From assembly GCA_003558085.1 (NCBI GenBank), contig PWMT01000027.1, forward strand, positions 1-44,471: a stretch of 44,471 nucleotides of DNA, given 5' to 3'. The first letter of the stretch is position 1. The number at the start of each line of letters is the position of its first letter. Shown one piece after another: positions 2,401 to 21,808 of this stretch. Position numbers and translations under genes: made by a program. This stretch comes from Methanobacteriaceae archaeon. Lineage in GTDB: Archaea > Methanobacteriota > Methanobacteria > Methanobacteriales > Methanobacteriaceae. Below the pieces are notes generated by a model. That model was not told the DNA's origin and did no database searches. It saw only the letters and a program-made list of their open reading frames with translations.

Positions 2401-3777
2401 ATGGTTATATTATGCTTAATTAGCATAATGAATATAAATGGGATCTATTCTGCAGAAGTAAATGATGATATTATAACTATAGAAGAAGAAACTGATGATC
2501 TTATAACTAGGGGAAATATTGAAAATACAAAAGAAGAACCTGAATCTTATGCAAATAAGCAGCTACAAACCAATAATCCTATACTTAGCCCTACCAGTAA
2601 TTCCTATTCTGTAGCTCATGTGCAAGATGCTTCAGTTAGGGTGAGGAATTTTATTGAAAATCGTGGAAGGTTGCCTAATTTTGTAACTATCAATAATCGT
2701 CAAGTGGAAATGGCTGATTTTTTATATATGTTGAGCACTACTACTCTTAATCTGCATGAATCTCAATTTGGCCCTATAGTCCAGTATAGTGTGATGGGGC
2801 CTATTTCTAGTTTTGATCAAGTTGATCGGGGTAATATTCAAAGGGTTGAATATTTGCAGTTGGCGCAGGGGATTAATGATCGGATTGCAGGTAGTGGTCA
2901 GGCTCCTTCTTATTTTAGTTCTAGTCGTGGTGTTTTAGGTTATGAGTCGTTAATTCATCTTTATTCTAGAATAAATGCTTTTTATTTTACACATCATAGA
3001 TTACCCAATTTTGCTAATGTGTCTCCCTGGACCGGAGAAAAATTACCAGATATTCCTCCAGTACCGATAGTAAGCGATTATAAAATTGAACTTTTAATAC
3101 TGGGTACTGGTGGAGATGTTACCAAAAATCCAGAGATTAATGAATATATCCCTCTTACCTCTTTATCCGAAGTAATATTCGAATATGCCATGATAGGTAC
3201 ACCAATACTTGAATTTGGCGACGGAGATGGTGAAAAACTGTTAATATTGGCTGGAATTCATGGAAACGAAGCAGAATCGAACATATCTCTCATGAAATAT
3301 TTGGAATATATCAAAGATCTGAATTTCCAAGGAACAATATATGCAATACCCTTTGCCATTCCTTACAGTACTTCTATAAATAGTAGAAACTGGAAAGGAC
3401 AAGACCCCAATAGGAATGCTAATATCCCTGGAACACCGGGCTGGTTAATTTTGCAATATGCCCAAGATAATGGAGTATCATATATTTTAGATGTGCATTC
3501 TGGTGGAGATTTAACAGATTATTCTCATGGTTTAATCTATACTTCAACATCAAAAGAGGACCTTCAATGGGCTAATTATATTAATTCACAAGTAGGAAGT
3601 GCAGTGGAACAGGGAAGTCCTCACTTAGGCATGATAAGTTTTGGTGCTCGTGAATTAGGTATCAATACCTTAACCCTTGAAGTAGAAAGGGATTTGGGTT
3701 GTACTTTAGAGTGGGCTAATGTTCAATTTGAAATGATAAAAGTAGCATGCAATTATTTATTTGCAGAACTAATATAA
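2401..3777 (+). CDS. Secreted pseudomurein-binding-repeat protein with C-terminal M14/succinylglutamate-desuccinylase-like zinc peptidase domain
   Basis: Hydrophobic N-terminus; repeats ending GRLPNFV, GQAPSYF and HRLPNFA (pseudomurein-binding type); catalytic-type motifs GIHGNE, DPNR, LDVHSG and a downstream Glu (TLEVE). The true start may be ATT at 2374. Confidence 0.8.
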   Translation: MVILCLISIMNINGIYSAEVNDDIITIEEETDDLITRGNIENTKEEPESYANKQLQTNNPILSPTSNSYSVAHVQDASVRVRNFIENRGRLPNFVTINNRQVEMADFLYMLSTTTLNLHESQFGPIVQYSVMGPISSFDQVDRGNIQRVEYLQLAQGINDRIAGSGQAPSYFSSSRGVLGYESLIHLYSRINAFYFTHHRLPNFANVSPWTGEKLPDIPPVPIVSDYKIELLILGTGGDVTKNPEINEYIPLTSLSEVIFEYAMIGTPILEFGDGDGEKLLILAGIHGNEAESNISLMKYLEYIKDLNFQGTIYAIPFAIPYSTSINSRNWKGQDPNRNANIPGTPGWLILQYAQDNGVSYILDVHSGGDLTDYSHGLIYTSTSKEDLQWANYINSQVGSAVEQGSPHLGMISFGARELGINTLTLEVERDLGCTLEWANVQFEMIKVACNYLFAELI

Positions 3778-5932: not shown

Positions 5933-7489
5933 CTAAACTAAAACCTGATAAACTACAAACTCCTGATTTTCATATATTTTTTCCCAGTAATTATAATCTA
6001 AATTAGCAATATTAATTTTTTCCGAATTATAAAATAAGAATTGATTATTCACATTCCAAAAAGAATCAGGGGACGCCGTGAAGTTCAATTTTTTATCATA
6101 TACCACTATATCTATTTGATTTGTAATTAGATCGGACTCATTTAGTATTCCACTATGCTGTCTATGTAAAAGATTAGATACTGGGATAGGGGTGTAAGAT
6201 AAAATAAAAATTGAGGTATAATAATTAGAAAAGGTAGCAACTTGGTTTTCATTAACATTTTGCTGCATCCAATTCCCTAATTCTATTTCTCCCCTAGAAG
6301 GAGGGGCTATATCTACAGTTTTTATAGGTGTTTCAGCTCCAAATTCGGTTACTTTTGTACTTGAAAAGGTTGAATATCCTTGAAATATGGAAAAAATTAC
6401 TATAAGGACTAAAATCAAATAACCTATTTTTGAATAAAGCTTATCTTGAGATTTGAACCAAAAAATGATGTTTTTTAAACCATAAGCTGCTATTATTGAA
6501 ATAGGAATTAATATGTAAACTAAAACCCTATATGAGATCACATTAACCCCTACTAGATAACTTTGAGATAAAAAGAGCATGGAAAGGATCCAGGTGATTA
6601 TGAAGATATCCTTTAATCGTAACTTAATCAAAGCACCATATCCTCCTATAATGGATAAAAATAGTAGCAAATATCCAAATGCGCCGGGATAATTTATAAT
6701 ATTCATAGGTACTGCACTAGAAAGAGCAGTGCTCACCCCTCCTTGGGCAGTACTTAGAGTAAAATAGATGGCAGGAATCCACCACCATGCCGCTAATATC
6801 ACGCCACTGATCATATAAAACAAGTAATTCAGTAGGGATCCTTTTAGATTAATAAATCTTGCCGGGTTAAACATATTTTTTATAAGCAAAACCAAAGTGA
6901 TGGAACTTACCGCCACTAGCAAACAAAAGGTGGCGGCCTGATGGATAAGAGCCATCAATCCCATAATCAGACCAGCTAAAATAGCGAATTTATAATTCTT
7001 ATACTGGAAGGAGTGATAATAGAAATAAATACTAAGGGGTAAAAATATTAAAGCCAAATTTTCTGGTAAAGGTAATATAATGCGACTGATCAATACACTG
7101 GAAAATATAATTATTCCTGCCAGCACACCGGTAAACTTCCCATAAAACTTAAAGGCGGTTAGAGAAGTGGATAAAATAATAAAACTGGCTACTAATGGTT
7201 GTAATGCTCTGGCTACTTGAAAATTGTTTAAATTGAATAGCATACCTCCCCCTGCTAATAAAAGATGAAAAAGAGGAGGATAATTTATAACATTATCATT
7301 AAGAGGATTAAGCAAAGGGTTGATAAACACTAGTCCTTGGCTAGTATAAACTTGGGCCAGGTGAAGATGATAAAATATATCCCAACTAAATGGCCACTGA
7401 TTTGTTAAGGTGGGGATTAGGGCCATAATAAACGCTAGGACTGCGGGCACTGCTAGAACCAAATTATTTTTTATAATCTCTGACCGCAT
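5933..7489 (-). CDS. Polytopic membrane protein, GT-C glycosyltransferase-like
   Basis: About 12 TM helices, first external loop WDIFYH...YPPLFH, and a soluble C-terminal domain ending KIYENQEFVVY. Confidence 0.65.
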   Translation of the reverse strand: MRSEIIKNNLVLAVPAVLAFIMALIPTLTNQWPFSWDIFYHLHLAQVYTSQGLVFINPLLNPLNDNVINYPPLFHLLLAGGGMLFNLNNFQVARALQPLVASFIILSTSLTAFKFYGKFTGVLAGIIIFSSVLISRIILPLPENLALIFLPLSIYFYYHSFQYKNYKFAILAGLIMGLMALIHQAATFCLLVAVSSITLVLLIKNMFNPARFINLKGSLLNYLFYMISGVILAAWWWIPAIYFTLSTAQGGVSTALSSAVPMNIINYPGAFGYLLLFLSIIGGYGALIKLRLKDIFIITWILSMLFLSQSYLVGVNVISYRVLVYILIPISIIAAYGLKNIIFWFKSQDKLYSKIGYLILVLIVIFSIFQGYSTFSSTKVTEFGAETPIKTVDIAPPSRGEIELGNWMQQNVNENQVATFSNYYTSIFILSYTPIPVSNLLHRQHSGILNESDLITNQIDIVVYDKKLNFTASPDSFWNVNNQFLFYNSEKINIANLDYNYWEKIYENQEFVVYQVLV

Positions 7490-9658: not shown

Positions 9659-10600
9659 CTAAATTAAAACCACCCTTAAAAATACGAATAACCACCATAA
9701 CAACATAAGTATGGTACTTTTTAAATGGGGCAACGATTTTTTAAAACCATCTTTTAAATCAGAATTCAGACTCCAGTGAATAATAATTATTAAAAGCAGT
9801 AAAAGAGTTGCAATACCTCCTAAAATATTTAATGGATTATTTAAATAACTAAATATCCAAAAAAAAGTAGTAATAAGAATTCCAAGCCACATTACCGGAT
9901 TTAAACTTTCAAATACTTTAATAGCAAGTTTCAAGTTTTCTTCAAATTTACGGGCCTTTAAGAGTAGACCATAGATAGCTAGATACACTCCCAGGGCTAG
10001 AATAATACCTACAAACTGGGGAAAGACTTCTACTACAGGCACCTGGAAGAAGCCAGCTTTCAGTATAGGTAACAATATCAAGGCATTTAATGCTTCATCC
10101 AAGGGAAAGGTTTCTATATCTCCCACTGCCAGTGAATAAAAACCCTGATTTTCATTATTGAATACCCGAATATAATAGGTACCTGGCTCTACAGTCTGAT
10201 TATATTCAGGGCCTTGCAAGTAATTATCTCCTCCAAAAGGTTCAAAAAATGGTTTCCAATCATAATTTATCCCATCCAAGAGGACTATGACATTTAAATT
10301 TTCATCTAATATCTCAGCCGATACCAGTTTCTCTCCTGATCCGGGAGTATCGGGCACCAGTAAATTCACATATAATCGAAATTCTTCATTACTAGTTATT
10401 TTATAATAAGCCGGGCTTCCCTTAAGTTCACCATAAAAAGCCTGGGAAATTTCAGGATTATCCACTAGTATGGGATTTTCCAGGGAACTGTCCTCACGGG
10501 CTAAACGAGGCTGATGGGCATTACTCCAGGATAGAGATATTAAAAGAATTAATAAAATAATTACTAAACTTGTCCGTTGATAGAAAGTTCCGGCTTTCAT
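9659..10600 (-). CDS. Hypothetical membrane protein with N-terminal extracellular beta domain
   Basis: Signal peptide, soluble domain (FFEPFGGDNY, PGTYYIRVF) and about 4-5 C-terminal TM helices. Confidence 0.75.
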   Translation of the reverse strand: MKAGTFYQRTSLVIILLILLISLSWSNAHQPRLAREDSSLENPILVDNPEISQAFYGELKGSPAYYKITSNEEFRLYVNLLVPDTPGSGEKLVSAEILDENLNVIVLLDGINYDWKPFFEPFGGDNYLQGPEYNQTVEPGTYYIRVFNNENQGFYSLAVGDIETFPLDEALNALILLPILKAGFFQVPVVEVFPQFVGIILALGVYLAIYGLLLKARKFEENLKLAIKVFESLNPVMWLGILITTFFWIFSYLNNPLNILGGIATLLLLLIIIIHWSLNSDLKDGFKKSLPHLKSTILMLLWWLFVFLRVVLI

Positions 10601-10730: not shown

Positions 10731-11567
10731 TTATAATTTAATAACCATTCCCGTAGAAAGATATTCAAGCTTACTACCCATCACTTCTTTTAAAAGCAGA
10801 TAAGGTTTTATTTCAGTACAATGTCCCGTGTAAACTTTCCCTAGAGGATATTTCAGTATTTTATCAGCAATTTCTTTTACTTCAAAGATGCACTCCTCCC
10901 TATTATTGAAGGCCGATTCTATAATATGAAAACCACCTAAAACTGCTTTTATAGGTTTTCCTCTAAATTTATTCCGGGCTGTTTCTATCATATTTAATAT
11001 GCCTTGATGGGAACATCCACTAAAAATAGTTATTCCGTCCTTTTCCTCGATGACCATCAAAAGCTCGTGGAGAAAATCATCCCTTATTAATTGCCTGTTT
11101 TTTTCCTGGTATAGAAATTTATTGTCTGGGGGTTGGGGATAGATTTTTTTAATGGAGCTTAGTAGATGCACATTCTCCAATATTTCCAGGTCCTGGGTCA
11201 GATATCTTATCTGCTGGGAGTTTTTTTCTAAAACCGTTTTATCCCAGGTAATATTCTTCTTGGTTCCATTATCATAAACACGGTAATAATTACCTATCTT
11301 TTTTGTATAGACTGGGGCATGTTTATTTTCCTTAAAAAAAGTTTCCAAGCCACCCCCATGGTCATAGTGTCCGTGGGATATTATTACTGTGTCAACTTCA
11401 TTGAGATCAATACCTAGTTCTTTGGCGTTTTCAGCGAAGTAACCACTTGCTCCGGTATCAAAAAGTATATTTTGTTTCTCTTTTTGGATGTGGAGAGAAA
11501 GACCATGCTCATTAATTAAATTAGAATTTTCCAATTTTTTATCATCAATTAAAGTGGTTATTATCAA
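10731..11567 (-). CDS. MBL-fold metallo-hydrolase (EHGLS / dihydropteroate-synthase-like MBL group)
   Basis: EHGLS, LFDTG, SHGHYDH, GCSH, GGFH and GHCT motifs. Confidence 0.88.
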   Translation of the reverse strand: MIITTLIDDKKLENSNLINEHGLSLHIQKEKQNILFDTGASGYFAENAKELGIDLNEVDTVIISHGHYDHGGGLETFFKENKHAPVYTKKIGNYYRVYDNGTKKNITWDKTVLEKNSQQIRYLTQDLEILENVHLLSSIKKIYPQPPDNKFLYQEKNRQLIRDDFLHELLMVIEEKDGITIFSGCSHQGILNMIETARNKFRGKPIKAVLGGFHIIESAFNNREECIFEVKEIADKILKYPLGKVYTGHCTEIKPYLLLKEVMGSKLEYLSTGMVIKL

Positions 11568-11803
11568 TATTTTACCCCAAATATCAATTTTGATTATTAA
11601 TATCTGTTTATCTTAATATAAATCTCTATTATAGAAAAAATAATCAATTCTTCACCATTAAAACTTTTTTTTTATAGTTTTATAAGGCTAATCTTTAATT
11701 AAAAACATCATATATTTTTTATTTAATAAACTAAATTCCATAAGGCCTTTATTATTTTGGCAAATTTTATATTATTGTAAAAGAGAAATAAATGGTTATG
11801 GTC

Positions 11804-13057
11804 ATGCAGATTTCTACCGATGTTAGCGGAAGAAGTGGTATAGATTGTGGGGGTTTTTGCAAGTTCTGTTTTTATAAAAATGTTGATTTTAATAATTTAA
11901 AACCCATAGGTTGTGTAAATTGCCCTCCCCATACAAAAGGATGCTCTTATTGTCAAAGTATTATGGATAGAGTATCCAGTGATTATAAACCTCTTTATAA
12001 CGTTTTAGAAGACCTGGTGCAAAAATTTTCAAAAATTAATTGGAGTACCTTAAATCCTAAAGATCTTCAGATACTGGTAATCGGGGGAGCGGATATATTT
12101 AACTATCCCGAGCTCTACAAGCTTGTTTCTAAATTAAAAGAACTTCCATTTTCATTACATTTGGGATATACTAGTGGAAAACCTATAAAAAATCATAAAA
12201 TGCCTGAAAAATTGATTTCATTAGGGGTGGATGAGGTGAGTTTTTCAATTTTTTCCACAAATCCAGAAATGAGAAGAAAATGGATGAGGGATACCAGTCC
12301 TGATCAATCCATTAAAGGTTTTAAAATCTTCTCTGAAAACATTGATCTCAATGCATCTGCTGTAATTATTCCCGGAGTAAATGATGGAGAGCAACTAATT
12401 GAAACCTGCGTAAATCTAGAAGATTGGGGTATAAAATCATTTGCCTTAAGAAGATTTGCTAATTTCAACTATCAAGGACTTATATTGAATAAAAAACCAA
12501 TATTGGATGGAATAACCCCTCAAACTTATGAAGAATTCCAATCATTAGTCTACAAGGTTTCTGAAGAATTTTCTTTCAAAGTAATTGGTTTTCCCTTATA
12601 TTACTCTAAAAAAGATTTACCCTTCGCCATATTGAAAAAAAATAACCAAAGCATGCTTAGAGAATTACCTAAAATCAAAACAAAAGCTTCAGTTTTAACT
12701 GGCAAATTAGCTTCACCTTTTTTGAAAAAATTTTTTGAATTAGTTGATGATTTGAATCTGGTGAATGTTATTACTCTGGGAAAAGAAATCGCTGATTTAA
12801 TTACCCAAGAAGATTTGGAGTTAATGGACCTTGCTGAAGTTAAATCTAATGTGATTATTCCCAGAGGGGCTTTGGTTCATGATAAAGAAGTTAAGAAAAT
12901 TTTAAATAGTGACGGTAAGTTTAGAAAAATGGTTAGGGGTTCTTTGGATTTAACCTATCCTTATAATGAAAATGTAGATGATTCCCAAGAAGATTTCAAA
13001 AAATTTGAACTAAAATGTTTTAAAGATTTGATTGATACCATAAATTCTTTTAAATAA
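11804..13057 (+). CDS. Mmp10-like cobalamin-dependent radical SAM protein (methanogenesis marker 10 homologue, divergent)
   Basis: N-terminal DCGGFCKFC (CxxxCxxC), a second CxxC-x6-CxxC loop, HLGYTSGK, IIPGVNDG, RFAN...GLIL and IADLIT..DL, matching the Mmp10 family layout. ATG at 11792 is an alternative start. Confidence 0.8.
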   Translation: MQISTDVSGRSGIDCGGFCKFCFYKNVDFNNLKPIGCVNCPPHTKGCSYCQSIMDRVSSDYKPLYNVLEDLVQKFSKINWSTLNPKDLQILVIGGADIFNYPELYKLVSKLKELPFSLHLGYTSGKPIKNHKMPEKLISLGVDEVSFSIFSTNPEMRRKWMRDTSPDQSIKGFKIFSENIDLNASAVIIPGVNDGEQLIETCVNLEDWGIKSFALRRFANFNYQGLILNKKPILDGITPQTYEEFQSLVYKVSEEFSFKVIGFPLYYSKKDLPFAILKKNNQSMLRELPKIKTKASVLTGKLASPFLKKFFELVDDLNLVNVITLGKEIADLITQEDLELMDLAEVKSNVIIPRGALVHDKEVKKILNSDGKFRKMVRGSLDLTYPYNENVDDSQEDFKKFELKCFKDLIDTINSFK

Positions 13058-13212
13058 TGTTAAGAATATATCCAAAAAAAAAATTATTTCAATTTTTAAG
13101 CAAAAAATTAATTATACTAAACAACTAAAGAATAATATTTAATAATAAAATTATCAGCCATGCTTATTTTTTTAATTAATGGCGATATTTACTGGTAGTT
13201 AGGGGTAGGGCG

Positions 13213-13764
13213 ATGTCAATTAAAAGGATTATATTAATAATAATCACCTTTTCTATATTGTCTGTTTTATTTTTAACATTGATTTTTGAAACTCAATTTC
13301 TAAGTTGGATTGAACTTAACTGGTTTTCTCTGCTGCTAATAATTCTAATAGTTGCAATTTTTATAGCATTTATATTAGGATTTTCAATAGATTATTTATA
13401 TCCGAAGATTTCCAAGAAGTCAAGATTTTCACAAACCACCCAACTTAAAAAACCCCGCAAAAAATTAGCAAAACTAATTTTACCCAGAGATAATCAATTA
13501 ATTATAGATTATTACGAAAGAGTTTATGGTAGAGCAGATTTTATAGGATTATTGGTAATAGATAAACTAAATTTCATAGGAAGAGAGCATTTCAAAATTA
13601 CTAAATTGGATGATGGAATTTATATTGAAGATCTTGATACCAAAAACGGAACAAAGGTTAATGGGGAAGAAATAAAAGGCTTAGATAAAGTTAAACTGAA
13701 AAATAATGATTCAATACTGGTTGCCAAGGTATTAGAACTAAAATTCGTGACAGAATCTGAATAA
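13213..13764 (+). CDS. Membrane-anchored FHA-domain protein
   Basis: Two N-terminal TM helices; C-terminal FHA motifs YGR, REHF and IEDLDTKNGTKVNG. Confidence 0.88.
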   Translation: MSIKRIILIIITFSILSVLFLTLIFETQFLSWIELNWFSLLLIILIVAIFIAFILGFSIDYLYPKISKKSRFSQTTQLKKPRKKLAKLILPRDNQLIIDYYERVYGRADFIGLLVIDKLNFIGREHFKITKLDDGIYIEDLDTKNGTKVNGEEIKGLDKVKLKNNDSILVAKVLELKFVTESE

Positions 13765-13806
13765 TAATGATTCATTTCTATAATTTTAAAATATTGGATT
13801 AAGAAT

Positions 13807-14892
13807 ATGCAATGTGAATATAGGGGATGTGAGGAAGAGGTTTTTAATGAAAATGATTTATGTATTCTCCATATCAATTTACCCCTTGATGAAAACAGTG
13901 AAGAATTCAAAATAATCAACCAATTAAAAGAAGATAAAATAGAGGAGAGGAAAAAAAACCATAATCTAAATTTTAAAGGAGTTAATCTTTTAAATGCGAA
14001 CTTCCAGGAATTTGAAACGGAAAAGGACATAATATTAACTGATTCTTTCATAAAAAATAACCTATTATTTGAAAATGCCTGGATTGGTGGAGATGTATGG
14101 GCCGATAAAATCAAGATAGAAGGAAGCCTTTTTTTTGAAATGGCCCAGTTTGAGGGCAGTGTTTCTTTTTTCAATGCTGAAATAAATGGAAATATTTTCT
14201 TCGATCATTGTCAAATTGGATATTATATGTGGTTTCAGAATGCCATTATAGGTGGAGATTTATCCTTTAATCATATTAAAACAGGAGGAAGTATTTCTTT
14301 TAAAAATGCCCAATTAAATCACAATGTTTCCTTCAATGCTGCACAAATAGGGGGTAATGCCTGGTTTGATAAAGCTTATATTAAAGGAAACACTTATTTC
14401 GATCTTTTAAATGTAGTTGGGACTTTAAATTTTTTTAATACAAAATTTGAAAATTCTAAAGGACAGGAAAGAGCCTATAGGTCTGCAAAAATAATTTGGG
14501 AGAGATATGGTGATAGGGAAAGAGCAGATTACAACTTTTATCATGAAATGGAGGCCAAAAGAAAACAGAAACATTTTTATTTACGCTATCCAGAATTAAT
14601 TGTGCAATATATTTTTGGCTATGGGGTATATCCCCTACGAGTTTTATTTGCATATATAGGTCTATTTTTCTTATTTGCATTTATTTACTGGTATTTGGAT
14701 GGGTTTGGCTCATATGATTCCCTAATTAATAAATTAAAATTCAGTTTTATCACTCTTATTATCCCAGCTTATGGGGTGGTAATAGATCCTAGAACGGGAT
14801 TTTATGGCTTTTTAACCATTATACAGGCAGGTATCGGCGCTTTCACCTGGCCCCTTTTTGTGGTGATCTTTGCCCGAAAATTCATGCGGTAA
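13807..14892 (+). CDS. Pentapeptide-repeat protein with C-terminal 2TM channel-like domain
   Basis: N-terminal C-x4-C...C-x2-H motif, repeated (F)xNAxIxGxxxF units, GYGVYPLRV followed by two TM helices flanking a pore-like segment. Confidence 0.8.
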   Translation: MQCEYRGCEEEVFNENDLCILHINLPLDENSEEFKIINQLKEDKIEERKKNHNLNFKGVNLLNANFQEFETEKDIILTDSFIKNNLLFENAWIGGDVWADKIKIEGSLFFEMAQFEGSVSFFNAEINGNIFFDHCQIGYYMWFQNAIIGGDLSFNHIKTGGSISFKNAQLNHNVSFNAAQIGGNAWFDKAYIKGNTYFDLLNVVGTLNFFNTKFENSKGQERAYRSAKIIWERYGDRERADYNFYHEMEAKRKQKHFYLRYPELIVQYIFGYGVYPLRVLFAYIGLFFLFAFIYWYLDGFGSYDSLINKLKFSFITLIIPAYGVVIDPRTGFYGFLTIIQAGIGAFTWPLFVVIFARKFMR

Positions 14893-14988
14893 AAATTAAA
14901 TTCATGTTAAAGCATTTTTCTTACTTTTTTTCTTATAACCATTCGAAAATCCTTTATTATAATCCTGCAGGAAATAATCATAATAAAT

Positions 14989-16455
14989 TTAATCAACTTT
15001 TTGCGTATCAATGCCCATCACAGCATACATCACATTCCCGGGGTCACTGATGGAGGTTATGCTGATCCCTGATTTTTTTCCAATAGATGATCGACTATTA
15101 GGATTGGTTTTATCATTAAATATACGATTTTCAGTTTCTCCAGGAAAAACATCACCATGATCTCCTTGAACTTCTAAAAATTTTTTTAACTCATCCTCTG
15201 TTGGTCTGAATTTATTAGAATCCTTTACCATAAATATGCGTTTTTCTAATTCATTTTTACCATCTGCTTGGTTTAAGCGTATAAAAAGCGATTTAGGGTC
15301 TAAATTGGGAAACTTTATATCTTTATAATTTTCTTCATTAACATGCCAGATTAAAAGACCCTCACCAGGTATATGTTCATCAAAGCCTTTTTTCGCACGA
15401 TTTTCAACTAAGAAATATTCTTTACCTTCTGAGGAGGGAATAACTAATTTATAAATTTTACTACCCTTATTAAAACCAGTGATTTCATATTTTTTAGGTC
15501 TCTTGTTGATGTTGATAGGTTCCTGCCATCCTAAATGCATTTTGCACCAGGCACTCAAATGTCCGGGGGTTTTCCCATCATCATTATAGTTTCCTCCGGC
15601 CATTAAACACCATTTTCCTACTATATTGGATGACCTGTCTGGTAGATACAGATCTGGAAGTCCTAAACTATGGCCCATCTCATGACAATATCCTCCCAGA
15701 TCAAAAGAAGGGATTTCATTGTTTATGATATAATTATCTACTATAAGACCATCTTCTAATTGTATAGGCTCTTTTAACTGATTTCTATGGGGAGATATAT
15801 CCTTATAATTCATGGTTCTATGAGATCCTTTACCGGCACACACCACTATGAGTAAATCTATACACCCATTTTTTTTATTATCAAACTTTGTAAAATCCAG
15901 GGTGCTGCTATTTTGAGCCTCTAAAACTATTTCTTTAACTAAATCGGTTGCTTTTGGCATTCGCCATCCTAAAGTATCCTGATTCATATTTTCTGAATCC
16001 ACATAGCTCGAATAATTATTATTGGCTTCGAACCAACCTAAAACTTCTCCATCAATTTCCAGCTTGCCTCCGGAATTTTCTATAAAATAATTTTTCATAC
16101 TCTTTTTTTTATCATCAAATAAAAGTTCTCTAAATTCTTCCTTTTTAGTGTTATTTGTTTTATCTTTAAAATTTACCAGCAATACCAGAGCATTTTTTTT
16201 ACCTATAACTGGATCTTTTTTACGATAATCAATAGCTGAATCCGCCTTAAATTGATCCAACATTAGATAATTGCGGATCCAATTTTGTTTACATTGTTCA
16301 TAGGTTCTTGTAGTTACACCAGTCTTTTTTTCAATTTCATCTTCATCTAAGTCCTTCTTCAACAAGTTGACGAATTGCAACATCCTTTTAAATACTTCGG
16401 GATGAGATCTTCTCAGATGCACTCCTGTAACGATTTCTTCTAGATTTTTATTCAT
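14989..16455 (-). CDS. M6 family (immune inhibitor A-like) zinc metalloprotease
   Basis: LVLLVNFKD, SMKNYFIENSGG, HEMGHSLGLPDLY, WCLMAGG Met-turn, HLSAWCK, EYFLVENR and GLLIWHV. No signal peptide. SD GGGGGT. Confidence 0.9.
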   Translation of the reverse strand: MNKNLEEIVTGVHLRRSHPEVFKRMLQFVNLLKKDLDEDEIEKKTGVTTRTYEQCKQNWIRNYLMLDQFKADSAIDYRKKDPVIGKKNALVLLVNFKDKTNNTKKEEFRELLFDDKKKSMKNYFIENSGGKLEIDGEVLGWFEANNNYSSYVDSENMNQDTLGWRMPKATDLVKEIVLEAQNSSTLDFTKFDNKKNGCIDLLIVVCAGKGSHRTMNYKDISPHRNQLKEPIQLEDGLIVDNYIINNEIPSFDLGGYCHEMGHSLGLPDLYLPDRSSNIVGKWCLMAGGNYNDDGKTPGHLSAWCKMHLGWQEPININKRPKKYEITGFNKGSKIYKLVIPSSEGKEYFLVENRAKKGFDEHIPGEGLLIWHVNEENYKDIKFPNLDPKSLFIRLNQADGKNELEKRIFMVKDSNKFRPTEDELKKFLEVQGDHGDVFPGETENRIFNDKTNPNSRSSIGKKSGISITSISDPGNVMYAVMGIDTQKVD

Positions 16456-16602
16456 TAAATAACCCCCAAAGTATTATATAATATAAAGTATAAAAATGTC
16501 TTTTTTAAATAATTATGGATATATAAGTAATACTTTGATTAACTATAAATCATATAAATTATAATATAATATAAAGATTTTTTTGGCGGGGGGGGTTAGA
16601 TT

Positions 16603-16773
16603 TTGAGTCGAGAAGAAGAAATAAAAAATTTAGAAGATTTCAAAGATGGCTATAAAAAAGGTTTTGCTGATGGATATATGGAGGCTATGAAAGAAGTCTT
16701 TAAAATGCAGGAAAAAATGGATAAAGAAAGTATGACCACACCGGGTGTTCAACCAAGATCAATTTGGTGGTAA
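16603..16773 (+). CDS. Small 56-aa protein MSREEEIKNLEDFKDGYKKGFADGYMEAMKEVFKMQEKMDKESMTTPGVQPRSIWW (absent from the ORF track)
   Basis: Hand translation: TTG at 16603 after a G8 SD-like run (16588-16595), purine-rich coding-like composition, TAA at 16771-16773, then a T-tract. Confidence 0.8.
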   Translation: MSREEEIKNLEDFKDGYKKGFADGYMEAMKEVFKMQEKMDKESMTTPGVQPRSIWW

Positions 16774-16952
16774 TCAGAATTAATTTTTTACTAATAAAAT
16801 GATATTTTAAATCTTAAATTAATTGTAAATTGGCTTATACACTACTGGCTTCAATATCCTTTCATTTAGTTAGTTTTTAATTAACTAAATAAATTTATGG
16901 ATCTGGGGGGATTAAAATTTCAGTTAAGATCTATAATAGAAAGTTAAAATAC

Positions 16953-19181
16953 TTGATTATGGTGTTAGTTTTCTTTTTAATCTTATCTCCAATACATGCT
17001 AGTAATGAAAAACCCTCGGTTGTATTTGATGAGACTGGCCCTTATTATAATTTTTTTACTATATTCAATTTAGGTGGGACCGGTTCTTCTATTTTTGCTA
17101 ATCTACTAGAATCAAATGGGTTTTCAGTTTCGCGATTGACAGGGTCTCCTATAACTGACCAGAATCTTCAAGAACATGATGTTTTAATTGTAATGGCCCC
17201 TGCACGTAATTACACAGATGATGAAATTCAATCCATAAAAAAATTTGTTAATGATGGTGGGGGATTGTTTTTATTAGGTGATAATTGGGGGGTGGAGGAT
17301 GGTAATGAAAATTATGCCTATAATCTACTTGCCCAAAGTTTTGGATTAAGTTTTTCTTATAATGAAGCTTTAGTAGACTCTGAAAATTATATAGGATTGC
17401 ACGACTTTGTTATAATTTCTGATATTCAATCTAGCTCGCTAACAACTAATCTAGACAAATTAAATTACATGCAAGGATCTTATATTAAAGATCCAGGTTC
17501 TTCAGAAATTCAGGCCTTATCTAGTTCTAATTCATGGGGAGATCAATTAACACTAACAGATAGCGGATTTTCCGAACCGGATTTTAATAAAGATCCAAAT
17601 GAAGTTTCAGGTCCTCTACCTGTGCTTACTACTTTAGATTATGGCCAGGGAAGAGTAGTATTTTTTGGTTCGGTAAGAAGCTTTAATAATGCTTGGATTT
17701 ATAGGAGCGATAACTGGAAACTGGGAATTAACAGTGTAAACTGGTTAGCAGGTAGACCAGCACCCAGCACTTATGAAGAAGCAGGCTTATTTTCACCTAC
17801 CCTAGCTGATTTACAAAATTATATTATGGGATTTTTTGGATACAGTTTACTACTTATAAGTGCTTTAGTTTTCAAAATAAACAAAGATAAGAAAGATAAA
17901 AAATCAAAACCATTTAAAATCATTAAAAACTGGAAATATAATGCTCTAATGGCTTTAAATGCAATATTTATAATTTTAGTAATTATTATCTTTATTAGCT
18001 CTAATATGATATTTTTTGATATAGCAAACCATCAGTTATTTGACGTTAACTTGGGGTATACTCTTTTAATTACGGGAATTCCATTAATTTTCTTCTCCAG
18101 TTTAATTCTCTATAACATATACGCCCGTTTAAGAATTAAGGTTAATTTTAACTATTTTAGCATTTTTATACTTATTTTATTTACAGGTTTAACCGCATTT
18201 CTGGGAAATTTATTCTCTTTTCCTATAATGGGTATTTTTACCGGTTTAAGTTTATTTTTAATTTTACCTTTTGCTGTTAATCTCTGGATTAACCATAAAT
18301 ATGGTTCGGAGATTATCATTGAAGGTAAAGAATTCAACCGTCTAGAAAAACTTTCTCTTAAATCATTACCCTACGAGCTTCAATCCATTTATCAAGAATC
18401 TTCCTTTATTGGTGAAGGTGGTTTTGGTCGTGTATTTAAGGCTCAAAGAAATGATGGTCAGGATGTTGCCATAAAGATACCAAAAAGCTTTGATAAAAGG
18501 TCGGAGAAGATTTTTGTTAGTGAAGTGGCCAACTGGGAGAATTTAATCCATCCCCACATAGTTAGGTTATATGACTACAAGATCTTGCCTATACCCTACC
18601 TTGAAATGGAGTACTGCGAATCTTCATTAAGTTATGGACCAAAAACCGTGGAAGAATCAGTTTCCGTCATCTATGAAGTGGCACAGGGATTAAAATATGC
18701 TCATGGTAAAAATATTATCCATGGAGATATAAAAAACACCAATATCATGAGCTGTAATGGAATTTATAAAATTTCCGATTGGGGACTGAGCAAATTACAT
18801 CTTGATGAATCAGTTACTGTTTCCGGGGTTACTCCCCATTATGCTGCACCAGAACAAATATCTCGTGAATTTGGAAAAGCAGATAGAAGAACCGATATTT
18901 ATCAGCTGGGAATTATATTCTATGAACAATTAACTGGAAATTTACCCTTTAAAGGAGAAATTTCAAAAGTTTATGACTCTATATTAAATACCCAGCCAGT
19001 TTTTCCTTCGGTAATAAACCCAGATGCAGCTTTAGCTGATAAAATAGTAATGAAATGTTTAAGCAAAAACAAAAAAGAAAGATACAACTCAATGGATGAA
19101 TTACTCCAAGATCTGGAACCATTCTATAAACCAAGATCAACAAGCGATAAAACGGTTTTTTTAGATAAAGAAGTAGATTAA
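16953..19181 (+). CDS. Receptor-like Hanks-type Ser/Thr protein kinase (extracellular GldG/GATase-like domain, about 5 TM, kinase)
   Basis: Signal peptide; VLIVMAP...FVNDGGGLFLLGD...GQGRVVFFG (GldG/GIFT-like); TM bundle; GEGGFGRV, VAIK, HGDIKNTN, DWGL, YAAPEQ and DIYQLG. The true start may be ATT at 16917. Confidence 0.92.
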   Translation: MIMVLVFFLILSPIHASNEKPSVVFDETGPYYNFFTIFNLGGTGSSIFANLLESNGFSVSRLTGSPITDQNLQEHDVLIVMAPARNYTDDEIQSIKKFVNDGGGLFLLGDNWGVEDGNENYAYNLLAQSFGLSFSYNEALVDSENYIGLHDFVIISDIQSSSLTTNLDKLNYMQGSYIKDPGSSEIQALSSSNSWGDQLTLTDSGFSEPDFNKDPNEVSGPLPVLTTLDYGQGRVVFFGSVRSFNNAWIYRSDNWKLGINSVNWLAGRPAPSTYEEAGLFSPTLADLQNYIMGFFGYSLLLISALVFKINKDKKDKKSKPFKIIKNWKYNALMALNAIFIILVIIIFISSNMIFFDIANHQLFDVNLGYTLLITGIPLIFFSSLILYNIYARLRIKVNFNYFSIFILILFTGLTAFLGNLFSFPIMGIFTGLSLFLILPFAVNLWINHKYGSEIIIEGKEFNRLEKLSLKSLPYELQSIYQESSFIGEGGFGRVFKAQRNDGQDVAIKIPKSFDKRSEKIFVSEVANWENLIHPHIVRLYDYKILPIPYLEMEYCESSLSYGPKTVEESVSVIYEVAQGLKYAHGKNIIHGDIKNTNIMSCNGIYKISDWGLSKLHLDESVTVSGVTPHYAAPEQISREFGKADRRTDIYQLGIIFYEQLTGNLPFKGEISKVYDSILNTQPVFPSVINPDAALADKIVMKCLSKNKKERYNSMDELLQDLEPFYKPRSTSDKTVFLDKEVD

Positions 19182-19195
19182 AAATTTATAGATTA

Positions 19196-19972
19196 TTAAT
19201 TTAAACATCTAACTGATTTCATTATTTCTTGGGCATTAGTTATTTTTTTTTCTAAATCAAGTATTATATAGGCTTTATTACCTCTGCTTAAGCTGGAAGA
19301 TAGAATTAACTGTTTTTCTCCGATTAATTTAGCTCCATCTACCGGGGTATGTCCCACTATCATGGCCTGGCATCCAACATTTTTTAAAAATGAATCGATG
19401 TCATTATTATCATAATCCCCATAACGGTTCCATAAAAGTCCTAGCAGTTTCTGGTTATTCAAATAACTTACATCTGTTATATGGATAACATCTTCAATAC
19501 TGTTAACTTCTTTTGCAGGTCCCGCATGGCTAATGAATACTTTATTCCCGGTTTTAACAGCTATGGGAAGTTTTCTAAAGAAATCCTGATATTCTTTTAA
19601 TTTATCTAGCCATTTATCCTGAAATTTCTCTTTTAATAAAATTTCAAAGGTAGAGTTTAAATCTTCCATGTTCTTATAAATGGCAACTGAAGTGATAACT
19701 GACCACTCATGGTTTCCTAATAGGACATGAAAGTTGGTATCTTTTTCAAAATTAGATTTAACAGTCTCTAATAATTCAATTGATTCATCTTTATCATGGT
19801 CTATAGCATGTATAAAATCACCAATTAATACCAGATGATTATCTTCTTTTTTAAAATCCTTCCAAATATCCATTAATTTATTAAAATCAGTTAAATTACC
19901 ATGAATATCTGCAATTATCAAGGCCTTACCTTTTTTGGGCAATTCAACCAGACTACCCCTATAATTATGCAT
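19196..19972 (-). CDS. PPP/calcineurin-like metallophosphoesterase (putative Ser/Thr phosphatase)
   Basis: ADIHGN, GDFIH, LGNHE, SHAG, LLWN and GHTP motifs. Confidence 0.85.
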   Translation of the reverse strand: MHNYRGSLVELPKKGKALIIADIHGNLTDFNKLMDIWKDFKKEDNHLVLIGDFIHAIDHDKDESIELLETVKSNFEKDTNFHVLLGNHEWSVITSVAIYKNMEDLNSTFEILLKEKFQDKWLDKLKEYQDFFRKLPIAVKTGNKVFISHAGPAKEVNSIEDVIHITDVSYLNNQKLLGLLWNRYGDYDNNDIDSFLKNVGCQAMIVGHTPVDGAKLIGEKQLILSSSLSRGNKAYIILDLEKKITNAQEIMKSVRCLN

Positions 19973-20104
19973 GTTATCATATTTATTATTAATTTTATTA
20001 TATTAATAGTTTATATCACTAAGATTTTATATTCTACTAGATACAAAAATGGGTTTAATTAAGAACAAGCTCAAAGATTTTTAAATTAGGGGAGGGTTTC
20101 CTCT

Positions 20105-20518
20105 TTGCATAAGGGAAAATTGATGGGTATACTGGCCGGAATTACTTTTTTTATTATTATTTTAGCGTTGCTTAGTTATCTACAAACAGATTTTGACCAG
20201 AAGTTAATTATTGCGGTAAATAATGAAGAACCTACCTCAATTTTGATTACTCAAATTGAAGATGAAGCTGCAAGAGAGAGATCTAAAGCAAAAAATAACT
20301 TATTATCCAACATGTTGGATAGAAAATTTTGGTTTCAAATTGATAGTTTTAATGAATCTGATATTCAATTTTCTAAAGGAGTGTATATTAGACATATGAA
20401 ATTTATTAATGAGCAGGAGGAGTTAAGAAAAGATTTGGTAACTAAAAAAATTAATGTAGAAGAATTTACATTAGAAAGCAAAAGATTGGAAGAACTTTAC
20501 TACGCTAAGTTCTTTTGA
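20105..20518 (+). CDS. Hypothetical membrane-anchored helical protein
   Basis: SD GGGGAGG, N-terminal TM helix and a charged helical remainder. Confidence 0.7.
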   Translation: MHKGKLMGILAGITFFIIILALLSYLQTDFDQKLIIAVNNEEPTSILITQIEDEAARERSKAKNNLLSNMLDRKFWFQIDSFNESDIQFSKGVYIRHMKFINEQEELRKDLVTKKINVEEFTLESKRLEELYYAKFF

Positions 20519-20548: not shown

Positions 20549-21109
20549 TCAATCCATTTCCTCATTTAAAATAGAATCTATCTGCTGGTGCACCTCTTCA
20601 ATACTGGGAGAGGTATTGATTATATGCCATTTTTGGGCTAGTTCTAAAGCTTTTCTTCTAACCTTTATTAAATCCTCTTTATTTTCAAACATCTCCTCAA
20701 AATCTCTCTCTTTTAAGCGTTGAAGCGCGTCATCTTCTTCTAGATCTAAAAAAAACATATAAGGTGAGGTAGGTAGAAATAGGGTGAAAATTTTATAGAA
20801 GATTTTAGCCAGGGGCAGTGGGAGGTAGGCCACACCCATAAGATATCTTACAAATATAACCGTATCTGCTTTTCCATAATATAAACGAACAGATCTTATA
20901 ACGTCTAATGCGTAATAAAAGGATGCTTTTAATTTATTTATTTTTCCTCTACCTAAAAGGGCATGCTTAGCCTGGATACCATAATAGTTGTCATCAGAGG
21001 GGTGGCTGCGGAGTATAACTGTTCCTTTTTTTTCACATCTCTTTTGGATTAAGTGGGCATGGGTGTCTTTTCCTGCACCATCCAATCCATCTATCACTAT
21101 AAATCGCAT
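20549..21109 (-). CDS. tmk: Thymidylate kinase
   Basis: FIVIDGLDGAGKDT P-loop, RSHP, FVRY and FFLD motifs; SD AGGTG. Confidence 0.82.
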   Translation of the reverse strand: MRFIVIDGLDGAGKDTHAHLIQKRCEKKGTVILRSHPSDDNYYGIQAKHALLGRGKINKLKASFYYALDVIRSVRLYYGKADTVIFVRYLMGVAYLPLPLAKIFYKIFTLFLPTSPYMFFLDLEEDDALQRLKERDFEEMFENKEDLIKVRRKALELAQKWHIINTSPSIEEVHQQIDSILNEEMD

Positions 21110-21154: not shown

Positions 21155-21808
21155 TTATATTAACCCCATTATTAGATAGGCTCCCACCGCTCCAAAACAA
21201 GCAGTTAAATTATCTAATCCTCTAGGGGTGACTCCTTCCAGTATAGTGGCCACTAAAGAAATGATCACTATAGTAGTAAGATTTAGAGGATGATTATAGA
21301 ATAAGAAAACTATGATCAAAGAGAATATCAACACTAAAAACATGGAAATTGAACCTTCCAGACTTTTGGTATCTCCAAAGATATTATATTTATTTTTACC
21401 ATACCTTTCACCCATTAAGGAGGCTATTCCATCTCCATAGGACATGGCAGCAATTCCTACCGCTATAATCCAGGGCTGAGGAAAAAATAAAAAAGCCAGC
21501 ACCGTCCAGGAAATAGCATAATATACCAGTCCTAAACCATGTCCTGAAGTTGAAACTCGATGATTTAACTTTATAGGGGAATAAGGACTCATAATAAAAG
21601 TTAAAAATATAAATGGTGCTGCTGCAAGAAAGGTGATAGCCTCTCTGGTGGCAAATACTGGTAATATGAAGAGTATATTACCAACCATGATGTGTACAAA
21701 TTTTCGACTGAAACGAGGATAATTTTGGAGAACTTTAGCACTGATGATTAGTAACAGGGCTACATAACCATAAACAAATAATAGTCCTAGTAGGTCACTT
21801 GATTCCAT
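21155..21808 (-). CDS. SEC59/DGK1/VTE5-family polyprenol (dolichol/phytol) kinase
   Basis: SRKFVHI, GDGIASLMG, KSLEGS and GLDNL motifs; multiple TM helices. Confidence 0.88.
   Translation of the reverse strand: MESSDLLGLLFVYGYVALLLIISAKVLQNYPRFSRKFVHIMVGNILFILPVFATREAITFLAAAPFIFLTFIMSPYSPIKLNHRVSTSGHGLGLVYYAISWTVLAFLFFPQPWIIAVGIAAMSYGDGIASLMGERYGKNKYNIFGDTKSLEGSISMFLVLIFSLIIVFLFYNHPLNLTTIVIISLVATILEGVTPRGLDNLTACFGAVGAYLIMGLI

Follow-up and report, generated by a model that had tools for sequence, protein, structure and literature searches.

A conserved kinase, FHA, phosphatase and protease gene cluster with an Mmp10 paralogue in Methanobacteriaceae: a candidate membrane signalling module

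In actinobacteria, the fhaA-fhaB-pstP-rodA-pbpA-pknA-pknB locus brings together genes for a Hanks kinase of the receptor type, whose sensor faces outward, for a small FHA protein anchored in the membrane and for a Ser/Thr phosphatase. A gene block with a comparable core is found at positions 11792-20518 of the window analysed here, the whole 44,471-nucleotide stretch (positions 1 to 44,471, forward strand) of contig PWMT01000027.1 in assembly GCA_003558085.1 of a Methanobacteriaceae archaeon. The block codes for a receptor Ser/Thr kinase (STK), an FHA protein, a PPP-family phosphoesterase, an M6 metalloprotease, a small Trp-tailed protein (sW), a pentapeptide-repeat protein (PentaP), a paralogue of the B12-dependent radical S-adenosylmethionine (SAM) methyltransferase Mmp10 (Mmp10L), and a single-pass membrane protein, Orf137. 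As in the actinobacterial locus, a receptor Hanks kinase, a membrane-anchored FHA protein and a phosphatase are encoded together, but the phosphatase is of the PPP rather than the PP2C type, the sensor is a GIFT/DUF4350 domain rather than PASTA, and there are no RodA or PBP genes. The block also adds Orf137, the M6 protease, sW, a channel-like protein and the Mmp10 paralogue, and it is archaeal and confined to a minority of related genomes. Modules of kinase, FHA protein and phosphatase are already known as a kind; the present composition is new.

A second point of comparison is the Arn network of the Sulfolobales (the FHA protein ArnA, the vWA protein ArnB, the kinases ArnC and ArnD, and PP2A), which shares the archaeal logic of Hanks-type kinase, FHA domain and PPP phosphatase, as covered in the relevant part of a 2016 review (PMC5007285). 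Unlike the products of the block, the Arn proteins are cytoplasmic archaellum regulators that form no compact cluster with a receptor kinase, and the network lacks an ectodomain, a protease, a small protein with a Trp tail and any radical SAM enzyme. The same part of that review counts a single study of Ser/Thr/Tyr phosphorylation in methanogens. In the main texts of the literature searched, neither this cluster nor the sW and Orf137 families are described, and the same holds for an Mmp10 paralogue and for a fusion of DUF4350 to a kinase; "Mmp10" appears in PMC12667266 only in locus tags.

Relatives of the block were sought among 41 related genomes, this one included, and in a public scan of one genome per species with the N-terminal part of the kinase as query, which returned 28 loci, all labelled Methanobacterium, Methanobacteriaceae or a higher-rank archaeal name. 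Neighbourhoods were then compared by clustering all open reading frames (ORFs) of 32 kinase-centred loci from 31 genomes; two of these loci are halves of one cluster, and two duplicate records were dropped. The most constant neighbour of the kinase is orf137, present in 30/32 loci (30 of the 31 evaluable loci with downstream DNA), followed by the M6 protease and sW genes, each in 23/32 (23 of the 28 with enough upstream DNA). The Mmp10-like gene accompanies the kinase in 19/32 loci, the PPP phosphatase gene in 16/32, the FHA gene in 14/32 and the pentapeptide gene in 6/32, each time after an FHA gene. The same core order, M6(-), sW(+), STK(+), orf137(+), recurs in no fewer than three chromosomal settings unrelated to one another, namely next to tmk/UbiA as in the window, between acetyl-CoA synthetase and thermosome/dap genes, and at TauE/TPR/RpiA, so that inherited gene order alone is insufficient to account for it.

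Presence and absence of the genes follow the same pattern. A full-length kinase match is found in 6 of the 41 genomes, these being this one, one of three from the same genus, two from other genera of the family and two from a second family in which the match contains several stop codons; there is none in the nine genomes of a third family (f2), and three among the 24 other genomes of the same family. The orf137 gene occurs only in those six genomes and the M6 gene only in three of them, and all 10 genomes with any FHA match fall within the 13 that have a kinase match. Every block gene is single-copy in this genome except for the Mmp10 pair. The block genes are a conserved unit. The original prediction, made from this sequence alone, proposed a synteny search as its check, and the genes do co-occur, across 31 genomes and at least three chromosomal contexts; it had ended the block just short of orf137, thereby omitting that most constant neighbour. 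It also noted that the block looks inserted, and relative to the sister family this is borne out: the tmk gene and the gene for a metallo-beta-lactamase (MBL)-fold hydrolase are direct neighbours in both sister-family genomes examined (23 and 151 bases apart, G037 and G033, respectively) and lie 9.0 kb apart in the window, so the block is an insertion relative to that arrangement. The base composition of the block (GC content 0.25-0.35) is no different from that of the rest of the window (0.25-0.43) and gives no hint of recent foreign origin.

The kinase is predicted to consist of a signal-like N-terminal segment, an outward GIFT/GldG-like domain, about five membrane segments at residues 289-447 and a cytoplasmic Hanks-type kinase domain, for which the Pkinase match covers profile positions 1-259 of 263. 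Hanks kinases are recognized by a Gly-rich loop, the VAIK Lys, the catalytic-loop Asp, the DFG Asp and the APE motif. The corresponding G-x-G-x-x-G, Lys of A-I-K, H-G-D, D-W-G and A-P-E do not vary among four intact orthologues; the catalytic loop reads H-G-D where H-R-D is expected (a non-RD kinase), and from these motifs the enzyme looks active. No other typical Hanks kinase is encoded in the assembly, which is 95.9% complete; its two further Pkinase matches belong to a Kae1-Bud32 fusion and an ABC1 protein. Orthologues are present in the named species Methanobacterium oryzae (DSM 11106, locus L040), M. alkalithermotolerans and M. aggregans. A reading of split kinase genes as decay throughout was considered and set aside, as it holds only for G026 (L018) and G032 (L020), in which multiple stops interrupt the kinase and the FHA gene too is broken; where a split is seen in a metagenome bin, misassembly may be the cause.

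The model of the kinase ectodomain (predicted local distance difference test [pLDDT] of 86.4) matches a GIFT/GATase1-like fold, its top folds being the N-terminal GIFT domain of IFT52 (E 3e-12), the oligosaccharyltransferase subunit OST48/Wbp1 and ThuA-like proteins. This predicted fold agrees with section 3.2 of Makarova et al. 2015 (PMC5898192), where DUF4350 is read as GldG-like. The arCOG01314/DUF4350 surface proteins treated in that section similarly have an outward GldG-like domain behind a signal peptide, but they carry a single C-terminal membrane helix and have vWA and MoxR-type ATPase neighbours, whereas about five membrane helices lead to a kinase here.

The other members of the predicted phosphorylation circuit are the FHA protein and the PPP phosphoesterase, and the claim of a full writer/reader/eraser set holds at the level of gene identity, with Pfam matches for the Ser/Thr kinase, the FHA protein and the PPP-type phosphoesterase. 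In the FHA protein, residues 1-64 include two hydrophobic segments, and the C-terminal FHA domain is the sole FHA match in the genome; because the genome has one typical Hanks kinase and one FHA domain, this reader would be expected to read this kinase. The linker behind the membrane segments carries a Thr-Thr pair that is also found in the six FHA proteins compared. Relative to chain 6hc1, the phosphate-binding loops retain G-R, the His and T-x-N-G, and the Ser of S-x-x-H is a Gly. The PPP family is defined by the metal motifs D-x-H-G, G-D and G-N-H-E, all of which are seen in the PPP translation; its best NCBIfam match is an ApaH-type tetraphosphatase (46.3 bits, below the cut-off of 176), and the protein is a candidate phospho-Ser/Thr phosphatase.

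PentaP had been described as channel-like, a description that stands in part. Its Pentapeptide_3 match is accompanied by two C-terminal hydrophobic segments at 273-298 and 335-356, and 42 of 80 homologues combine Pentapeptide_3 with the channel domain Ion_trans_2 (PF07885), although none of the closest 27 do so; the M. oryzae orthologue is annotated as a potassium channel family protein. However, the window protein has no PF07885 match at E 0.01, and the stretch between its membrane segments reads A-Y-G rather than the G-Y-G of the K+ channel selectivity filter. It appears to be channel-like at most, and K+ selectivity is not supported by the A-Y-G sequence.

Orf137 is a new protein family, with no Pfam or NCBIfam match and no Foldseek match in the PDB at E <= 0.001. 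Its model (pLDDT 85.9) has one membrane helix and a four-helix bundle, which is predicted to face the outside of the cell from the charges flanking the membrane helix.

The M6 protease and sW are linked by a shared module. The window protease contains the sequence HEMGH, and the H, E and H of the H-E-x-x-H motif are invariant in 20 orthologues. Described bacterial M6 members are secreted enzymes; the window protein has no hydrophobic segment, in keeping with its earlier description as cytoplasmic-looking, and none of the orthologues compared has a hydrophobic N-terminal segment either. The window open reading frame ends at a TAA codon, and 28 in-frame codons beyond it, up to a TGA, still encode Gly-x3-Gly-x3-Gly (14902-14991, minus strand). 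This GX3 tail is part of the protein in all 19 other M6 orthologues, which are longer than the one in the window, and the tail motif is at least 90% conserved. The TAA is either a nonsense mutation or a sequencing error, and it removes the module that M6 has in common with sW.

The sW orthologues are 51-91 amino acids (aa) long and are encoded on the kinase strand, either between the protease and kinase genes or, where a second FHA gene stands before the kinase, ahead of that gene; two further loci hold frameshifted sW remnants. All members have a Gly-x3-Gly-x3-Gly helix motif within G-Y-K-x-G-[YF]-x-D-G-Y-K and a Trp/Pro-rich C-terminus, with a G-x-x-P element before the Trp tail in most. At least two Trp are present in the last six residues of 19/23 sW proteins, compared with 5/1990 genome ORFs of at least 100 aa (genome Trp frequency 0.9%), and the genome has no ORF of this kind other than the window sW. 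Its start codon is TTG, and 7 bases upstream is a run of eight G at 16588-16595 that is likely the ribosome-binding site, as well as a homopolymer that could vary in length. By its sequence conservation, sW is a real, new gene family, and the 56-aa ORF listed in the original prediction is a real gene. Databases hold about 40-50 clusters of sW-like proteins, either unnamed or auto-named FliH. Repeated Gly-x3 helix motifs are otherwise known from the Yae1-Lto1 deca-GX3 adaptor pair and from the GxxxG repeats of FliH. The repeated motif is common to these proteins and sW, and the link tested consists of weak Pfam Yae1_N matches, which cover the GX3 motif, in 10/23 sW proteins (best E 0.0018); sW differs in being far shorter, in its Trp tail and in having a protease as its partner.

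Profile-profile comparison shows homology between the head of sW and the M6 protease tail (hhalign 98.2%, E 3.4e-14, 43 columns), and BLASTP between sW heads and M6 tails reaches 6e-12. Because the two share this homologous GX3 module, a direct link from protease to small protein can be argued. GX3 helices pair in other systems, and on this analogy we infer that the sW head may pair with the M6 tail. A prediction of the M6-sW complex for the L027 pair, with its own alignments, scored 0.09 against a mark of 0.32 and returned no verdict.

The Mmp10-like enzyme was correctly noted as divergent, as the genome holds two TIGR03278 matches that are 42% identical, the block copy at 439.7 bits and a better-scoring one on another contig at 643.8 bits. 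A high-scoring copy (583-696 bits) is carried by 37 of the 41 relatives, and a lower-scoring type (411-465 bits) is found in only four: this genome, G003, G021 and G002. No other copy was found in G002, where the gene sits at the end of a contig. A tree was built from 35 proteins, with one duplicate record and two short fragments excluded. In it, the 21 kinase-adjacent Mmp10L proteins and the G002 copy form one clade (Shimodaira-Hasegawa-like approximate likelihood ratio test 100) on a long stem (0.73). The clade has two subclades and is nested among the canonical copies of the family, the 13 canonical copies in the tree falling outside it, and it is found only with this cluster. Four loci (L025, L035, L036 and L042) have tandem Mmp10L pairs downstream of orf137, at about 12.6-15.2 kb (2.6-5.1 kb in L036), and the members of each pair fall in different subclades. 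In L024, the kinase is directly followed by only the last third of Mmp10L, and orf137 is missing.

Mmp10L matches the solved Mmp10 chain (PDB 7QBS) at 286 bits and, like Mmp10, keeps the three-Cys cluster, the four Cys of the iron loop, the Tyr ligand (Tyr115) and the Leu under the cobalamin (Leu322). The roles of these cofactor ligands, and a loop in which Glu378 binds the substrate arginine, are described in the sections of PMC8828468 on the Mmp10 structure. Unlike in Mmp10, that loop is replaced in Mmp10L: the D-G-E substrate motif is present in 13/13 canonical Mmp10 proteins and in 0/21 of the distinct paralogues that cover the site, where their sequence is unrelated and variable. Since the arginine-binding Glu motif is lost and the cofactor ligands are kept, it is probable that Mmp10L is active, no longer targets the McrA arginine and has a new substrate. 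The 439.7-bit match had made the block gene a candidate for the genome's bona fide Mmp10, which is overturned by the better second copy, the separate clade and the lost D-G-E.

We favour, with a probability of roughly 0.45, a reading of the block as one unit, a membrane signalling module restricted to Methanobacterium-like Methanobacteriaceae with an envelope sensor, a kinase/FHA/PPP core and a proteolytic branch. Genes, domains and conserved linkage are observed, and from them we infer the following mechanism. The GIFT/GldG-like ectodomain of the kinase and the outward helical domain of Orf137 would sense a cue at the cell envelope, and the cytoplasmic non-RD kinase domain would phosphorylate threonines of membrane-proximal targets, most likely the linker Thr-Thr pair of the FHA protein. 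Phospho-threonine would be read by the FHA domain, which would couple the signal to PentaP, its K-channel-like operon partner, as an optional output, and the PPP phosphatase would reset the system. The cytoplasmic M6 protease and sW would associate through their homologous GX3 helices, with sW being either an M6 substrate or an adaptor whose Trp-rich tail holds M6 at the membrane beside the kinase. Mmp10L may act as a B12/radical SAM C-methyltransferase on some component or target of the module. In this genome, where a stop codon leaves M6 without its GX3 tail, the proteolytic branch may be weakened.

Several observations weigh against this reading. PPP orthologues are distributed more widely than the kinase, in 16/41 genomes, some of which lack a kinase; the FHA and PPP genes adjoin the kinase in only about half of the 32 loci and in G021 are on a contig apart from the kinase cluster; and PentaP is present in just six. 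The FHA pocket is atypical, with Gly replacing the phosphate-loop Ser in six FHA proteins compared as well as here, the kinase reads as two or three pieces in 7/32 loci (some perhaps assembly errors), and the M6 gene is shortened here and deleted in the same-genus G003. The G003 locus (L014, 7586-8050) has no protease between sW and the pentapeptide gene. The genes on the separate G021 contig form an FHA-PPP-FHA trio (G021:C36:38861-40827), and other FHA clusters with a shorter kinase and/or a PPP gene, and no DUF4350 ectodomain, occur at G009:C1:1668882-1672937, G005:C1:225510-226701 and G006:C258:4883-8594.

The alternative that survives best is that the module listens to a peptide of its own making. 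In this scheme sW would be a precursor whose GX3 head is a leader recognized through the GX3 tail of M6, M6 would release the Trp/Pro-rich peptide, Mmp10L (joined in some genomes by a SAM methyltransferase) would modify it, the kinase and Orf137 ectodomains would sense it outside, and the FHA and PPP proteins would process the signal. Ribosomally synthesized peptides modified by radical SAM enzymes (RiPPs), with a leader peptidase, are a known kind of system, and the block resembles RiPP loci in having a precursor-like small ORF beside a protease and a radical SAM enzyme of a type that modifies peptides, all of which travel together with the receptor kinase. The conserved composition of the sW tail is consistent with a released peptide, and the homology of sW head to M6 tail offers a plausible recognition mechanism. 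A class I SAM-dependent methyltransferase also joins the cluster in six loci, and canonical Mmp10 works on a short extended peptide, according to the part of PMC8828468 on its substrate; in the paralogue, the substrate loop is remodelled. Unlike RiPP loci, however, the block has no known recognition element or SPASM-type enzyme, and neither an exporter of its own nor a signal for secretion was seen in the conserved core of the loci, sW having no signal peptide and M6 no hydrophobic segment. Mmp10L is missing from 13/32 loci, and G011 has the full cluster with the canonical Mmp10 copy alone; no sW tail residue tracks the presence of Mmp10L in a by-eye comparison; and in this genus M6 is shortened or deleted while sW and the kinase are intact.

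We regard a self-made peptide signal as doubtful in general form, and as unlikely in the specific form in which a Trp/Pro-rich peptide is cut from sW by GX3-guided M6, C-methylated by the Mmp10 paralogue and sensed by the GIFT-domain kinase and Orf137. Two steps of the original prediction fare accordingly. That a peptide is processed by the protease gains from sW being a conserved family beside M6 with a common GX3 module, although the link does not reach as far as cleavage; that it is possibly modified by the radical SAM enzyme gains from the altered substrate pocket of Mmp10L, although nothing ties that enzyme to sW specifically. Were the specific form true, it would give methanogens their first peptide-based circuit for cell-to-cell signalling or self-immunity, and Mmp10-type B12 radical SAM enzymes their first new substrate class. 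The methyltransferase mentioned above (Methyltransf_11, 75 bits; L040:14119-14763, minus strand) has family members in L018, L020, L024, L048 and L049, lies inside or adjoining the cluster in contexts that differ, and is a possible accessory member that is not in the window.

An improbable alternative is control of envelope growth or division in the manner of the actinobacterial PknB/FhaA/FhaB/PstP locus, with the GIFT domain reading pseudomurein or glycan intermediates and the kinase tuning wall synthesis or shape. The parallel architecture of receptor kinase, membrane-anchored FHA protein and phosphatase in one locus speaks for it, as does the best NCBIfam match of the FHA protein, FhaB/FipA, although at 27.2 bits this is far under the cut-off of 125. 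The ectodomain fold is also common to OST48/Wbp1, GldG-like proteins and glycosidase-associated domains, going by the fold matches and section 3.2 of PMC5898192. No wall-synthesis gene is present in any of the loci, however, and since most of the pseudomurein-walled relatives searched gave no full-length orthologue (the 0/9 and 3/24 counts above), a general wall function is argued against.

More improbable again is an antiviral defence or abortive-infection module built around the Ser/Thr kinase. The patchy distribution, variable chromosomal contexts and decay in some lineages would fit, and the kinase domain matches the PADLOC models mad6 (165 bits) and PD-T4-6 (157 bits), but these matches cover only the generic kinase domain, and the other seven proteins have no PADLOC match apart from a 17.8-bit match of PycTM to the membrane part of the FHA protein. 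The extracellular sensor domain fits sensing from outside, a scan of viral contigs found no relative of the N-terminal part of the kinase, and there is no integrase, tRNA gene or odd base composition near the block. That there is no unit, and that unrelated genes simply gathered by independent acquisition at an MBL-tmk hotspot, the fallback offered in the original prediction, is barely credible, for despite the mixed gene orientations and the accessory content that differs among genomes, the core stays together in at least three contexts with matching presence and absence, the protease and sW share a domain, and the Mmp10 paralogue clade keeps to this cluster.

Coordinates of the block genes and boundary genes are listed in Table 1. 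The positions of the seven genes first reported all hold, as do their identities, in the ORF list, Pfam and NCBIfam, except that the first ORF, Mmp10L, starts at 11792 rather than 11804. By the hydropathy scan, hydrophobic segments number two in the FHA protein, two in PentaP, one in Orf137 and about five plus the signal-like segment in STK, and there are none in M6, sW, PPP or Mmp10L.

Table 1. Features of the block and its boundaries in the window. Family matches are from Pfam and NCBIfam scans, in bits with the curated cut-off in parentheses; topology is from a hydropathy scan.
Feature	Position	Strand	Family match
MBL-fold hydrolase gene, left boundary	10731-11567	-	Pfam Lactamase_B
Mmp10L, paralogue of B12-dependent radical SAM methyltransferase Mmp10	11792-13057	+	Radical_SAM 48.7 (29.5); TIGR03278 439.7 (350)
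FHA protein, 183 aa, predicted membrane-anchored phospho-threonine reader	13213-13764	+	Pfam FHA 43 (20.7), residues 115-169
Pentapeptide-repeat protein (PentaP), 361 aa, C-terminal two-helix channel-like membrane part	13807-14892	+	Pentapeptide_3 47.1 (27)
M6 protease GX3-tail remnant, in frame behind TAA at 14989-14991	14902-14988	-	
M6 (InhA-like) zinc metalloprotease, 488 aa	14989-16455	-	Peptidase_M6 71 (22); TIGR03296 178.5 (110.8)
sW, 56 aa, GX3 head and Trp/Pro-rich tail	16603-16773	+	no Pfam/NCBIfam family
Receptor Ser/Thr kinase (STK), 742 aa	16953-19181	+	DUF4350 56 (30.4); IFT52_GIFT 42; Pkinase 138 (31.7)
PPP-family phosphoesterase, 258 aa, candidate phospho-Ser/Thr phosphatase	19196-19972	-	Metallophos 64.5 (21.5)
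Orf137, single-pass membrane protein	20105-20518	+	no Pfam/NCBIfam match
dTMP kinase gene (tmk), right boundary	20549-21109	-	Thymidylate_kin 118.5

The flanking genes are largely as had been named: LarC, QueC, pyruvate carboxylase subunit B (PycB), inositol-phosphate synthase (Ino1) and the MBL-fold hydrolase to the left, and dTMP kinase and a UbiA-type prenyltransferase to the right. The exception is the supposed polyprenol kinase, a 217-aa ORF (21155-21808, minus strand) that, like a 313-aa ORF on the same strand (9659-10600), has no match in Pfam or NCBIfam; both ORFs are kept beside the same neighbours in the same-genus G003 (74-80% identity). A 458-aa ORF (2401-3777, plus strand) and a 518-aa ORF (5933-7489, minus strand) have no match in the NCBIfam scan. 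An Rfam scan of the whole window finds no family at gathering score, and hence no tRNA or rRNA gene, including at 35-37 kb, where the GC content climbs to 0.42-0.43.

To our knowledge, the one role recorded so far for Mmp10 is to modify methyl-coenzyme M reductase. The paralogue in this cluster suggests a new Mmp10 function, of relevance to radical SAM enzymology and to how "methanogenesis marker 10" is used as a single-copy marker. Two new protein families come to light with the cluster, the GX3 protein sW with its Trp tail and Orf137, and a protease is tied to a small protein through domain sharing. The cluster offers a candidate circuit that is complete, from sensor and writer to reader and eraser, in methanogens, where signalling has been little explored and where cultured carriers of the cluster exist.

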